In this document: piece after piece, positions 40,995 through 47,529 of the stretch | How the letters are laid out: every line of letters begins with the position of its first letter | Numbering within the stretch: position 1 is the first letter of the stretch | From: an uncultured Saprospiraceae bacterium | Lineage (GTDB): Bacteria > Bacteroidota > Bacteroidia > Chitinophagales > Saprospiraceae | Reading direction: 5' to 3' | Length of the DNA stretch: 64,000 bases | Assembly (NCBI GenBank): GCA_937921825.1 | Contig: CAKZVK010000019.1 | Span: 966 to 64,965, forward strand | Notes under the pieces: generated by a model | Told to the model about the DNA's origin: nothing | What the model saw: the letters and a program-made list of their open reading frames with translations, nothing else | The model's database searches: none | Program-made: the position numbers and the translations under genes

Positions 40995-41094
40995 CTGAGA
41001 GTATATTCTTAATAAATTATGTAGTCAACAAATTTAGTCCCTAGACGCAACATTCTTGAGGTAGTAAGTATATATCTACTAAAACTTACTAGTG

Positions 41095-42297
41095 ATGAAA
41101 AACTTTGCAATTTCATTTTATGCCTTTTTTATCCTACTTCTCATTGGCTGCGGTGGTGGCGATAATTGTATAGTAGAAGATATTCTTGTAGAGACTGCTG
41201 ATTGCTCTTGTGAAACAGTTTATGAATTAACTCTAGACTTCTCTTATCAAGATGCTCCCTCAGAGTATTTCACCTTATATGCTAGACAAAATCAAGTCAT
41301 TGGATATTACAAACTAACAGATCTACCACTCACCATAGATAAATTCGAAACAAGTGGCTTGGAACATGAGTACATAAAAATCTGCCTAGACGAGGAAGAA
41401 GACTGTTGTACTGAGTTTGAATTCATGCCCGCCGATTGTTTAGAAGAAAGTACTTGCTCGATTAGTGATCTCATTGTAGAAACAGGAGAATGTAATCGTG
41501 ATGGCACCTATTTATTGGAGCTAGATTTTAATTATTCAAATGCAGGCAATGATTACTTTGATGTATTCGTCAGCAACAATGAAATATTCGATACTTACCT
41601 TTTGGAGGATTTGGCTCTAACAATAGATAATTTTCAACCTAGGGGTACTGAGTATGATTACATCAAAATATGTATCAATGATAATCCGGATTGTTGCCAA
41701 GAGATTGAATTCATGACTCCAGATTGTGAGGAAGAATGTAGCATTTCTGAGATAGTTTATGAAGTAGGCAATTGCACTTCAGAAAACACCTATACTCTTT
41801 ATCTAGATCTAGAAGTGAGTGGTTCTACTGACGATAGCTTTGATGTTTTTGTTAGCCAAAATGAATTCATAGGCTATTATCAATTTTCTGATCTGCCCTT
41901 AGAGATAACTGACTTCGAGATGAGCGGTGAGGACTACGACTACATCAAGATTTGTATCAATGATAACCCAGGCTGCTGTAAGGAAATAGAATTCATGAGC
42001 CCAATCTGTGAAGAAGAAGAATGTAGTATTTCTGAAATAGTTTATGAAGTAGGCAATTGCACTTCAGAAAATACCTATACTCTTTATCTCGATCTAGAAG
42101 TGAGTGGTTCTACTGACGATGGCTTTGATGTTTTTGCTAGACAAAATGAATTCATAGGCTATTACCAATTTTCTGATCTGCCCTTAGAGATAACTAACTT
42201 CGAGATGAGTGGCGAAGACTACGACTACGTAAAGATCTGTATCAATGATAACCCAGACTGCTGCAAAAAGATAGAATTTCTACCTCCAGATTGCTAG
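41095..42297 (+). CDS. Cys-rich lipoprotein made of four tandem modules of about 95 aa
   Basis: Lipobox LLIGC. Four modules of the form C.I.....E.G.C....Y.L.LD......D.F.V......IG.Y...DLPL.I..F......YDYIKICINDNP.CC.EIEF..P.C. Confidence 0.75.
   Translation: MKNFAISFYAFFILLLIGCGGGDNCIVEDILVETADCSCETVYELTLDFSYQDAPSEYFTLYARQNQVIGYYKLTDLPLTIDKFETSGLEHEYIKICLDEEEDCCTEFEFMPADCLEESTCSISDLIVETGECNRDGTYLLELDFNYSNAGNDYFDVFVSNNEIFDTYLLEDLALTIDNFQPRGTEYDYIKICINDNPDCCQEIEFMTPDCEEECSISEIVYEVGNCTSENTYTLYLDLEVSGSTDDSFDVFVSQNEFIGYYQFSDLPLEITDFEMSGEDYDYIKICINDNPGCCKEIEFMSPICEEEECSISEIVYEVGNCTSENTYTLYLDLEVSGSTDDGFDVFARQNEFIGYYQFSDLPLEITNFEMSGEDYDYVKICINDNPDCCKKIEFLPPDC
41734..42297 (+). repeat. Near-identical tandem duplication (2 x about 285 nt) inside the Cys-rich lipoprotein gene
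   Basis: The unit starting GAATGTAGCATTTCTGAGATAGTTTATGAAGTAGGCAATTGCAC at 41734 recurs at 42019 with only scattered substitutions. Confidence 0.85.
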
Positions 42298-45616: not shown

Positions 45617-45808
45617 ATTTTCTTATTTAATGTAATTAAGAGAGATAAAGTCAGTAGATAGGAAATAATCTGACTTAGGGAATGCAAACGTACAATAAAC
45701 TATCCATGTAATTATGACTTCCAAAAGGAAGTTTCACATATATATTTCTGCCATTTATCCCTTATGTATTGCACTTTAGCTTTAATTCATTGCTTGAATT
45801 ATTATTTT

Positions 45809-45824
45809 ATCGTAATATTGCGAT
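45809..45824. promoter_or_regulatory. 16-bp near-palindrome ATCGTAATATTGCGAT abutting the arsR-like start codon (candidate operator/promoter)
   Basis: 15/16 identical to the perfect palindrome at 46172-46187. It contains TAATATTG, which differs by one base from the -7 consensus TAnnTTTG. Confidence 0.55.
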
Positions 45825-46142
45825 ATGGGCTTATCTAAGACAGAGCTTTTTACTGATTATCAGAACAGTATAGCCACTATGGCGAAGGCCATAGCACATC
45901 CAGCACGGATTGCTATACTAGAATTGATGATCAAAAAAGGCACATGTGTCTGTGGCGATATCGTAGAGGAATTACCTCTGTCTCAGAGTACCGTCTCTCA
46001 ACATCTGAAGGCAATGAAACAAGCAGGTATAATCAAAGGGATCGTAGATGGTCCTTTCAGATGCTACTGCATAGATTGCAAGAACTTAGGCGCTCTCATG
46101 GGTCAGCTGAAAAGCATATTTACACAAGCTAAATGTTGCTGA
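45825..46142 (+). CDS. ArsR/SmtB-family metal(loid)-responsive repressor
   Basis: 105 aa. HPARIAILELM, then CVCGDIVEEL (alpha3 thiolate site position) and the recognition helix SQSTVSQHLKAMKQAG. Extra CYCIDC and a C-terminal KCC. Confidence 0.85.
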   Translation: MGLSKTELFTDYQNSIATMAKAIAHPARIAILELMIKKGTCVCGDIVEELPLSQSTVSQHLKAMKQAGIIKGIVDGPFRCYCIDCKNLGALMGQLKSIFTQAKCC

Positions 46143-46171
46143 CAGTCTGACGATTTTTTTTGGCTATAGCT

Positions 46172-46187
46172 ATCGTAATATTACGAT
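46172..46187. promoter_or_regulatory. Perfect 16-bp palindrome ATCGTAAT|ATTACGAT (candidate ArsR-type operator)
   Basis: Perfect dyad 62 nt upstream of the small Cys-rich ORF. A near-identical copy lies upstream of the regulator gene. Confidence 0.55.
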
Positions 46188-46248
46188 GTACAAATATGAT
46201 TCTATGTAAAGACATACAATCTTTTAATTCATCATTAAAATGTAAAAA

Positions 46249-46341
46249 ATGAAAAAGTTATTTTTTGCAGTAGTTGGACTAGCAAGTCTTGCAGCGATTA
46301 CATGCTGTGATCTGCCTTGCTGTTCAGGTGCATGCTGCTAA
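46249..46341 (+). CDS. Unannotated 30-aa Cys-rich micro-protein: hydrophobic N-segment followed by CC-x3-CC-x3-CC
   Basis: The ATG at 46249 to the TAA at 46339-46341 encodes MKKLFFAVVGLASLAAITCCDLPCCSGACC. It has its own palindrome upstream and a strong terminator downstream. Confidence 0.55.
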   Translation: MKKLFFAVVGLASLAAITCCDLPCCSGACC

Positions 46342-46349
46342 ATAAAGAG

Positions 46350-46380
46350 GGGGCCAGTGACTGCTACTGGCCCCTATTTT
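46350..46380 (+). terminator. Rho-independent terminator after the micro-protein gene
   Basis: 9-bp GC-rich stem GGGGCCAGT/ACTGGCCCC with a 7-nt loop, followed by TATTTTTATTTT. Confidence 0.85.
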
Positions 46381-46551
46381 TATTTTCAGCCTTTAACAAA
46401 AAAAAAAACAGAACCCCTCAGGACTCTGTCTGCTTTACACTAATTTCTTTTTTTTGATAGGAAGTTGTTCTACAACACTAAGCCAGTGCTATTACTATCC
46501 ATTAATGTCACCAGCAGACATTAGGTCACTCTCCACAGAAACATTATTGTC

Positions 46552-46575: not shown

Positions 46576-47529
46576 ATGAAAAAGGTTACGGCTATAATAC
46601 TCTTTAGTTTTCTCTGTCTTGTAAATCTGATGTCTCAAGCTATAGATGGTTCTTTTGCTTTTGATACTGATCCTGATAAGCAATACTCTATATATGTGCC
46701 CACCAGCTATGATGCAGGTATTCCTCAGAAACTTATGCTGGGTCTACATCCATTGAATACTTCTCGATGGAATGCAAAAGCTTGGAGAGATACTTTAGTC
46801 ACCTTCGCTGAGACCAATAACCTATTACTCGTATGCCCCGATGGAGGAGCAGATGGAAGAATAGATGACCCTATAGATACAGCATTTACAACCATACTTT
46901 TAGACTCTATATACCAATGGTATAATGTCGATCAGAGTCAAAAATATATCATGGGCTTCTCCTGGGGAGGAAAGACTACCTACACTTATGGGCTGAGAAG
47001 GACAGATGAGTTTGCGGGTTATCTAGCCATAGGTGCTGCAGTAACTGTCAGTGAAATATCTTCCCTGGTCACTAATGCAAAAGATGAATCATTCTACCTC
47101 GTACATGGTACGCAAGATAATGTACAGACCAGATACTCCTCTATACTAGAACAGTTAGAACTTAATGGTGCCTGTACTAATTCTACACTAATGGATAATG
47201 TCGGACATACCATAGATTTCCCCAATAGAAATGAGATTCTAACTGATGCCTTTATATGGCTCGAAAACAGTAATTGTCTCTCCAGTACCGAAGAGGAAGA
47301 ACAGGACCTGATAGCCAATAGAGTATATCCTAATCCTTTTGAAGATTACATAACTATTCCTTCCCTGCACATATACTCTAAGATTAGTCTCTATAGTACG
47401 AATGGACAATTACAGCCTTTTACTCTAGGTGATGATAAAATCAATGTCCCTAATCTAAATCCAGGACAATACATTTTATCTTTATTTACAGAACAAGGAA
47501 TAGACAATCATCTACTTCTAAAACTGTAA
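46576..47529 (+). CDS. Secreted alpha/beta-hydrolase (esterase) with T9SS C-terminal sorting domain
   Basis: Signal peptide, nucleophile elbow GFSWGG, HGTQD and GHT for the triad. C-terminus VYPNPFEDYITIPS...GQYILSLF. Confidence 0.75.
   Translation: MKKVTAIILFSFLCLVNLMSQAIDGSFAFDTDPDKQYSIYVPTSYDAGIPQKLMLGLHPLNTSRWNAKAWRDTLVTFAETNNLLLVCPDGGADGRIDDPIDTAFTTILLDSIYQWYNVDQSQKYIMGFSWGGKTTYTYGLRRTDEFAGYLAIGAAVTVSEISSLVTNAKDESFYLVHGTQDNVQTRYSSILEQLELNGACTNSTLMDNVGHTIDFPNRNEILTDAFIWLENSNCLSSTEEEEQDLIANRVYPNPFEDYITIPSLHIYSKISLYSTNGQLQPFTLGDDKINVPNLNPGQYILSLFTEQGIDNHLLLKL

Follow-up and report, generated by a model that had tools for sequence, protein, structure and literature searches.

A selected cysteine-pair micro-ORF beside an ArArsR-type repressor gene in Saprospiraceae: a candidate arsenic-inducible exported peptide

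What is made from a 30-codon open reading frame (ORF) that specifies three vicinal cysteine pairs, and why does it lie behind the gene of an ArsR/SmtB-type repressor? The question is raised by a locus in a 64-kb stretch of contig CAKZVK010000019.1 from an uncultured Saprospiraceae bacterium (the window, by which we mean this whole stretch), where arsR is followed by such a micro-ORF and each of the two is preceded by a 16-bp palindrome, a predicted operator. Comparison of related loci demonstrated that the micro-ORF is a real, selected gene tied to the repressor and that both operators are conserved with it. The explanation that we favour, to which we assign a probability of roughly 0.55, is that the micro-ORF encodes an exported, thiol-rich, arsenic-binding peptide, induced by As(III) or methylarsenite (MAs(III)) and belonging to a two-gene module of one Saprospiraceae clade.

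The micro-ORF and its conservation

The micro-ORF occupies positions 46249–46341 of the plus strand and encodes MKKLFFAVVGLASLAAITCCDLPCCSGACC. Its codons 1–18 (46249–46302) specify MKK followed by a hydrophobic stretch of 15 residues, a predicted Sec signal peptide that is possibly of the lipoprotein kind, and codons 19–30 with the stop (46303–46341) specify CCDLPCCSGACC, a mature part of ∼12 residues in which the three vicinal Cys pairs lie and which ends CC-stop. A predicted intrinsic terminator closes the unit (46349–46385, plus strand); its hairpin (46349–46375) begins 8 nucleotides (nt) past the stop, has 11 pairs of which 7 are G-C, and is followed by a T-rich tail, with a local folding free energy (ΔG) of −23.4 kcal/mol. 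The initial annotation had pointed to an unannotated 30-codon Cys-pair ORF with a terminator 8 nt behind it, and both elements were found here. Among the ATG-started ORFs of 15–70 codons in the window the micro-ORF alone has three CC pairs; the next best, and the only one with two non-overlapping CC matches, owes these to a CCCC run. Gene callers rarely report such a gene: among the loci with gene tables it was listed in two only, L099 and L101.

We examined the association with arsR in both directions. The forward test took all loci returned by 12 exact-protein look-ups of the window ArsR and its close relatives, leaving out of the count three that stop short of the region, namely L086, L089 and L085, the last being a short duplicate of the L084 contig. 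A similarly built ORF lay behind the second operator in 13/13 loci with usable downstream sequence, yielding 10 distinct peptides: MKKLMFAMIGLVSLAAIACCDLPCCAGGACC in L084, MKKLIFAALGIIGLAAVACCDLPCCADLPCC in L087/88, MRKFLFAMIGLAGTLAIACCDLPCCSGGACC in L090, MKKKIMILGTVGITALLAVIGSGCCDGTCCQLLGCC in L091/92, MKKILFGILGAAGLIAAVCCDLPCCPVGCC in L093, MKKLIIAATLLGGAALACCDWPCCVGGGCC in L099, MKKLFAIATVLGGIALACCDWPCCTGGACC in L100, MKKLMFAALGLISLAAIACCDLPCCAGSACC in L101, MKYLIGIVLIGGSLAMACCDWPCCTGGACC in L102 and MKKLILALGILSGLAAACCDLPCCPVGCC in L103. The reverse test was blind to arsR: 241 million metagenome records were scanned for [ATV]CCDLPCC, a pattern built from five peptides, and matches were confirmed by tblastn. 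Five loci were confirmed (L094–L098), and all five have arsR directly upstream together with both operators.

The surroundings of the module vary. Its flanks include YgiQ, esterase and UDG genes; SIR2 and RelA; SCO1 and YHYH; a MerR-like gene and OmpA; a metallophosphoesterase and DUF805; an IS1595 transposase; and an erythromycin esterase. Across at least nine genomic contexts arsR alone stays beside the micro-ORF, the pair being passed on together, and in a neighbour-joining tree the micro-ORF-linked ArsRs form a single clade. The YgiQ neighbour in the window is 80–85% identical to proteins named from Saprospiraceae, which assigns the contig to that family.

Selection on the encoded peptide was assessed in a codon alignment of eight distinct sequences. 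The proportion of synonymous sites that differ (pS) is 0.5–0.9, which is near saturation, and that of nonsynonymous sites (pN) is 0.15–0.39; dN/dS is 0.07–0.44 where dS could be calculated. Among the 28 codon columns free of gaps, third positions vary in 26, first positions in 17 and second positions in 15. The six cysteines are invariant in 14/14 family peptides, with TGT and TGC interchanging in the eight aligned sequences, and the reading frame, 29–36 codons long in the family, always terminates in CC-stop. Each of the 14 micro-ORFs has a GC-rich hairpin behind it (ΔG −15 to −25 kcal/mol), the sequence of which differs between loci. Taken together, the selection pattern, the kept Cys codons, the CC-stop end and the hairpins rule out a chance ORF, a decaying remnant or a purely RNA-level element; a pseudogene remnant was likewise rejected on grounds of synteny and selection. 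The initial annotation had proposed a search for small ORFs conserved beside arsR homologues and kept by purifying selection, and the forward count and the dN/dS values are the outcome of that search.

The repressor and its operators

The arsR gene (45825–46142, plus strand, with its ATG at 45825 and its TGA ending at 46142) encodes a protein of 105 residues, predicted to be an As(III)/MAs(III)-responsive ArsR/SmtB repressor of the ArArsR type described below. It matched the ArsR/SmtB winged-helix domain HTH_5 (PF01022) of Pfam with an E value of 2.7e-13, and NF033788 of NCBIfam with 67.2 bits against a cut-off of 55. Its cysteines are arranged as CVC (C41, C43), CYCIDC (C80, C82, C85) and a C-terminal KCC (C104, C105), so that the description of an ArsR-family protein with these three motifs was correct. 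Relatives number in the thousands in Bacteroidota by protein search, and in an alignment of 38 ArsR homologues C41, C43, C80, C82 and C105 are invariant and C104 nearly so. A sequence search of the PDB with the window repressor returned distant ArsR-family structures only (best E 1e-8), which do not illuminate the sensing site.

An informative homologue is ArArsR from Arsenicibacter rosenii SM-1, characterized by Zhang et al. (mLife 2025; PMC11868830). ArArsR has cysteines at positions 41, 43, 80, 82, 107 and 108; C41, C80 and C82 are the As(III) ligands, MAs(III) is sensed via C41 and C82, and neither C43 nor the C-terminal CC is required for sensing (PMC11868830). The protein is released from DNA by As(III) and methylarsenite, whereas pentavalent arsenic species give no induction, and in A. 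rosenii exposed to 10 μM As(III) the arsR, arsM and arsC genes rise 158- to 351-fold (PMC11868830). Its site, defined by DNase I footprinting and electrophoretic mobility-shift assay, is TTTTATCGTAATATTGCGATCACAATC, which overlaps the −35 element (PMC11868830). That study footprinted the upstream site alone and reported a single promoter, a second site being unmentioned (PMC11868830).

The window ArsR has the six-Cys set of this type (C41, C43, C80, C82 and the terminal CC) at equivalent positions, including the three As(III) ligands. Moreover, the predicted operator O1 (ATCGTAATATTGCGAT, 45809–45824) is contained letter for letter in the footprinted site, ATCGTAATATTGCGAT thus being the operator core upstream of arsR in both organisms. 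To judge from these matches, the window's regulator and operator are of a published, experimentally defined type and not new. Two differences of arrangement accompany the likeness. In A. rosenii the repressor controls arsM and arsC, co-transcribed with arsR, whereas the sole gene linked to the window arsR is the 30-codon ORF behind a second operator; and O1 abuts the arsR start codon, whereas the A. rosenii operator lies 19–46 nt 5′ of it (PMC11868830). The match in Cys set and operator narrows the probable inducer from the 'metal or metalloid' of the initial annotation to trivalent arsenicals, a specificity taken from the characterized homologue (PMC11868830). The related suggestion of a thiophilic sensor using the classical α3 CVC site held for the ArsR type only: as C43 and the terminal CC are dispensable in ArArsR, whose ligands are C41, C80 and C82, the sensing site is probably not the classical one (PMC11868830).

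The second predicted operator, O2 (46172–46187), is a perfect palindrome, ATCGTAATATTACGAT, lying 29 nt past the arsR stop and 61 nt before the micro-ORF ATG. O1 and O2 are the only two sites for the 16-bp palindrome in 64 kb at up to two mismatches, where 0.06 are expected by chance, and the observed number was reached in 0/100 shuffles. The two near-identical palindromes before regulator and micro-ORF were therefore as the initial annotation had described them, with the upstream distance now counted as 61 nt. Directly 5′ of O2 (46154–46171, plus strand) lies a T-run with GGCTATAGCT, showing little or no variation among 12 aligned loci, which may be a promoter element or the 3′ end of arsR; this region carries the conserved block TTTTTTTGGCTATAGCT, and upstream of arsR the 10-mer TTTAATTCAT recurs (45781–45790). 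Closer to the micro-ORF, alignment revealed an A/T-rich stretch (46218–46248, plus strand) with the family consensus ATATTTnTTAAC followed by an A-run, a putative promoter −7 region or translation initiation region. Motif and A-run lie 10–25 nt before the micro-ORF ATG, a distance that stays constant even with the operator as far off as 160 nt. Fitting the Bacteroidota −33/−7 consensus by eye around O2 gave spacings without a clean fit. Throughout the micro-ORF clade (the window and L084–L103) the arsR ATG follows the upstream operator without a gap; in other clades, and likewise in A. rosenii, ∼9–25 nt separate the two. An operator abutting the ATG would fit an arsR mRNA without a leader, or an operator placed within the 5′ end of the transcript; the occlusion of a −7 box envisaged by the initial annotation is a further possible effect of the repressor. 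For delimiting the whole regulon across complete Saprospiraceae genomes, ATCGTAATATTRCGAT is the sequence that would serve.

How widely the operator pair occurs was determined in 80 loci from species-representative genomes together with the loci from exact protein look-up, 100 loci being typed. The set takes in Chryseobacterium, Flavobacterium, Mucilaginibacter, Chitinophaga, Cyclobacteriaceae, Spirosomaceae, Balneolaceae and Ignavibacteriota. In 95/100 related loci arsR is preceded by the palindrome, and a second operator is found 17–31 nt past the arsR stop in 60 of the 94 loci with enough downstream sequence; among micro-ORF loci the second operator is present in 17/17, and in both of two fetched later. 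This second site spans Bacteroidota, Balneolaceae and Ignavibacteriota, where it precedes arsM, DUF6428 or arsC (loci L003–L080). Typed by sequence motifs, the gene after arsR in the 100 loci is DUF6428 in 33, arsM in 32, the micro-ORF in 17 and low-molecular-weight arsC in 5. Profile matches to examples of these genes gave 353 bits for arsM (NF008823, cut-off 263) and an E value of 1e-66 for DUF6428; for arsC the thioredoxin-type arsenate reductase model gave 3.6e-47 and 160 bits, which is under the model's 174-bit cut-off. The micro-ORF hence occupies the position that, in other lineages, is taken by the first arsenic-detoxification gene. The spacing of the two operators, ∼360 bp, suggests an internal regulated promoter, a roadblock or looping.

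Proposed function and its alternatives

The 14 family peptides share an N-terminus of the form M-[KR]-[KR], with few variants, and a hydrophobic stretch that is 14–15 residues long in 13 of them and 19 in one, with an invariant Gly in mid-stretch. Small residues stand at −3 and −1 before the first Cys, in keeping with the signal peptidase I rule, in 13/14 peptides, and the part beyond comprises 12–13 residues of the pattern CC-D-[LWG]-[PT]-CC-x(2-4)-CC. The window peptide has both the basic N-terminus and the hydrophobic stretch. Since 14–15 hydrophobic residues are typical of the h-region of a Sec signal peptide, and short for a membrane-spanning helix, the length of the stretch and the small residues at −3 and −1 make it likely that the micro-ORF product is exported. 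The exported or membrane-associated look attributed to it by the initial annotation is thus matched by a signal-peptide-like N-terminus across the family.

We propose the following scheme. The repressor would bind both palindromic operators, the one at its own start codon and the one past the arsR stop ahead of the micro-ORF, until As(III) or methylarsenite, binding at C41, C80 and C82, releases it and switches on arsR and the micro-ORF. Residues 1–18 of the pre-peptide would act as a Sec signal peptide, cut by signal peptidase I, or by signal peptidase II with lipidation of the first Cys, leaving the ∼12-residue CCDLPCCSGACC in the periplasm or anchored in the membrane. There its three vicinal Cys pairs would chelate trivalent arsenicals, each MAs(III) taking two thiolates and each As(III) three, the numbers of thiols that these arsenicals need (PMC11868830). 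Tetracysteine tags of the form CC-XX-CC bind biarsenical dyes, which is the basis of the FlAsH tag (PMC3157907). The peptide would in this way provide an inducible extracytoplasmic sink, or a hand-off point, for arsenic. Our comparison supports the reality and selection of the gene, its linkage to the repressor and the conservation of both operators. Operator binding and derepression by As(III)/MAs(III) are established for the homologue ArArsR (PMC11868830) and would apply to the window locus by analogy; the export, cleavage and lipidation of the peptide, its binding of arsenic and its physiological benefit are what we infer. More tentatively, and at somewhat less than an even chance, the Sec-exported and possibly lipid-anchored 12-mer might capture trivalent arsenicals, including methylarsenite, which is an antibiotic, before they enter the cytoplasm, and so be the first dedicated extracytoplasmic arsenic-binding peptide of bacteria.

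Several points weigh against this scheme. The main weakness is that an oxidizing periplasm could turn the Cys pairs into disulfides, which do not bind arsenic. The 64-kb window contains no other ars genes, so that the regulator is the one link between the module and arsenic physiology, and in L097/98 the operator is ∼160 nt from the micro-ORF ATG. To sequester a toxin stoichiometrically with a peptide is also an expensive form of resistance. As for lipidation, a relaxed PROSITE-like lipoprotein rule fitted 12/14 peptides, the strict lipobox [LVI][ASTVI][GAS]C fitted 0/14, and the window peptide has Thr at −1, which together render lipidation uncertain.

Other functions would share parts of this evidence. 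The same regulatory context would suit an arsenic-induced small protein that remains tethered in the membrane as an uncleaved anchor and offers its thiols to a partner, either an Acr3/ArsB-type pump or an uptake channel, and cleavage of the signal peptide is after all a prediction. Many bacterial proteins of ∼30 residues are single-helix modulators of transporters, the vicinal Cys pairs of MerT and MerF relay Hg(II), and models for such a partnership exist in ArsD, which serves ArsA, and in MerP, MerT and MerF, which hand on Hg(II). We nevertheless think a transporter partner unlikely: the 14–15-residue stretch is on the short side for a stable transmembrane helix, conserved transporter genes are lacking beside the module, whose neighbours vary by context, and an ars transporter is absent from the 64-kb window. 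It is less probable again that the repressor of this clade now answers to a different thiophilic inducer (Cd, Hg, Cu(I), Zn or Sb), for which the peptide would serve as a mini-metallothionein, much as SmtA does beside SmtB. ArsR/SmtB repressors do shift ligand specificity readily, Cys-rich peptides bind many soft metals and the arsR of this clade is unlinked to ars structural genes, but C41, C80, C82 and the operator are unchanged relative to homologues in arsM, arsC and DUF6428 operons, and no metal-efflux gene lies nearby.

The layout of a leader followed by a Cys-rich core resembles the precursors of ribosomally synthesized and post-translationally modified peptides (RiPPs), and the window has a radical SAM gene 1 kb upstream, which might point to a secreted product or signal of the methanobactin kind with a modified core. 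That gene, however, belongs to the housekeeping YgiQ family and does not accompany the module in L090, L091, L093, L094–L098, L099 and L100, the leader is like an ordinary Sec signal peptide, and across the at least nine contexts no modifying enzyme or exporter is conserved beside the module; we consider a RiPP very improbable. Slighter still is the prospect that the ORF is a non-coding element, or serves as an attenuation leader peptide rich in Cys codons. Attenuators classically consist of a short ORF in which a single amino acid abounds and a terminator right behind it, yet no downstream gene is conserved, the next gene being on the opposite strand in L091, L094–L096, L099, L100, L102 and L103; the hydrophobic N-terminus is conserved in character with low dN/dS; and nothing was found in Rfam, where matches at E≤1 were at chance level. 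The RiPP and attenuator readings thus fail because neither a modifying enzyme nor a downstream gene is conserved.

Known systems and other cysteine-rich features

Family searches indicated that the micro-ORF product lacks described relatives. The window peptide matched no Pfam family at E≤0.01, and three related peptides matched none of relevance at E≤1; in NCBIfam it gave only weak signal-peptide matches, among them an N-terminal match to a lipoprotein family (E 0.015). No profile of metallothioneins or of described Cys-rich small-protein families (SmtA-type, FeoB-associated Cys-rich membrane protein) was matched in Pfam or NCBIfam. A HMMER scan of 1.84 billion protein-cluster representatives retrieved one true relative, P0122 (31 residues, E 5e-6), and a second match, to a repeat protein, that was spurious; as protein databases hold next to nothing of this family, the comparison was made on DNA. 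The string CCDLPCC does not occur in ∼8 million papers. The statement of the initial annotation that it recognized no described family with this architecture therefore stands for the micro-ORF: the regulated gene is undescribed, and its regulator and operator are of a known type.

Comparison with characterized systems places the peptide beside several without assigning it to any. SmtB-SmtA likewise pairs an ArsR/SmtB repressor with an adjacent small Cys-rich sequestering protein. SmtA, however, is a cytoplasmic, folded, 56-residue Zn/Cd metallothionein encoded divergently from smtB, whereas the window peptide has a predicted signal peptide, ∼12 mature residues, no Pfam match and an arsenic-responsive repressor. 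ArsD, found in ars regulons, binds As(III) via a vicinal Cys pair and a third Cys, and so resembles the peptide in vicinal Cys chemistry in an ars context, the peptide's own binding being presumptive. Unlike it, ArsD is a cytoplasmic thioredoxin-fold protein of ∼120 residues that delivers As(III) to ArsA; the two share no homology, and no ArsA gene lies near the window module. MerP, MerT and MerF are metal-induced small proteins, exported or membrane-embedded, whose Cys pairs bind a soft metal in the membrane or beyond the cytoplasm, but they answer to a MerR regulator and to another metal, are larger (folded or multi-helix), feed a cytoplasmic reductase and have no sequence similarity to the peptide. 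The CCPGCC tetracysteine tag, target of FlAsH and ReAsH, shares the CC-Xn-CC arrangement, each arsenic of the organoarsenical being held by a thiol pair (PMC3157907); the tag is engineered and has a two-residue spacer, whereas in the natural peptide the spacers are three residues long (two to four in the family) and a third CC pair is present.

Bacteria are known to defend themselves against arsenic by efflux, reduction, methylation, oxidation and cytoplasmic chaperoning. Neither the literature nor the family searches, whose libraries are incomplete, yielded a description of a thiol peptide for arsenic that is both inducible and exported. As the micro-ORF family is mostly unannotated, it would have been missed by surveys of arsenic resistance in marine and freshwater Saprospiraceae. 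If our proposal is true, the gene is a new arsenic-resistance determinant that gene callers routinely overlook, and its product a natural counterpart of the tetracysteine tag; a short natural sequence binding As(III) and MAs(III) could possibly be of use in biosensors or bioremediation.

A terminal CC recurs among proteins of these loci. ArsR and the micro-protein of the window (codons at 46134–46142 and 46333–46341) and the ArsM proteins of L038 (3367–4224) and L040 (1281–2126) all end CC-stop, a hint that arsenic handling in the ArArsR-type regulon repeatedly makes use of a terminal CC, although ArArsR can dispense with it for sensing (PMC11868830).

Other Cys-rich ORFs lie in related loci. 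In L001 (3490–3705; Saprospiraceae metagenome-assembled genome, JBGCDT010000177.1), the basal locus of the clade in the neighbour-joining tree, the ORF MLNLILNLLNGSCCGCDCCTDGDCCGGGVCC has 31 residues with 9 Cys and no clear signal peptide, and lies 120 nt past the second operator with a hairpin behind it; this single sequence may represent a cytoplasmic variant or an ancestor of the micro-protein family. A Chitinophagaceae ars operon (L038, 4256–4333) has the ORF MNTNTKDPNCCTTNGCCGLTDKDCC after arsM, again a single sequence, with 25 residues and three CC pairs. In a second such operon (L040, 2541–2723) a 60-residue ORF with three CC pairs stands between a thioredoxin-like gene and a GDCC/permease pair; it was rejected as a member of a wider family, being a chimera whose first 24 residues come from a conserved 65-residue hypothetical protein and whose Cys tail occurs in one cluster only.

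Within the window itself, positions 41092–42297 (plus strand) encode a 401-residue protein with a lipoprotein-like N-terminus (…LLLIGCGGG) and four tandem repeats of ∼95 residues, each ending YIKICxxxxxDCCxEIEFMxPDC and so including a vicinal CC; Pfam gave nothing significant, with one sub-threshold match (E 0.008). Beyond the micro-ORF terminator, runs of A11 and T8 (46398–46461) flank a second hairpin (46406–46431), scored as a minus-strand terminator, which lies between that terminator and the gene of an esterase with a type IX secretion system tail (46576–47529).

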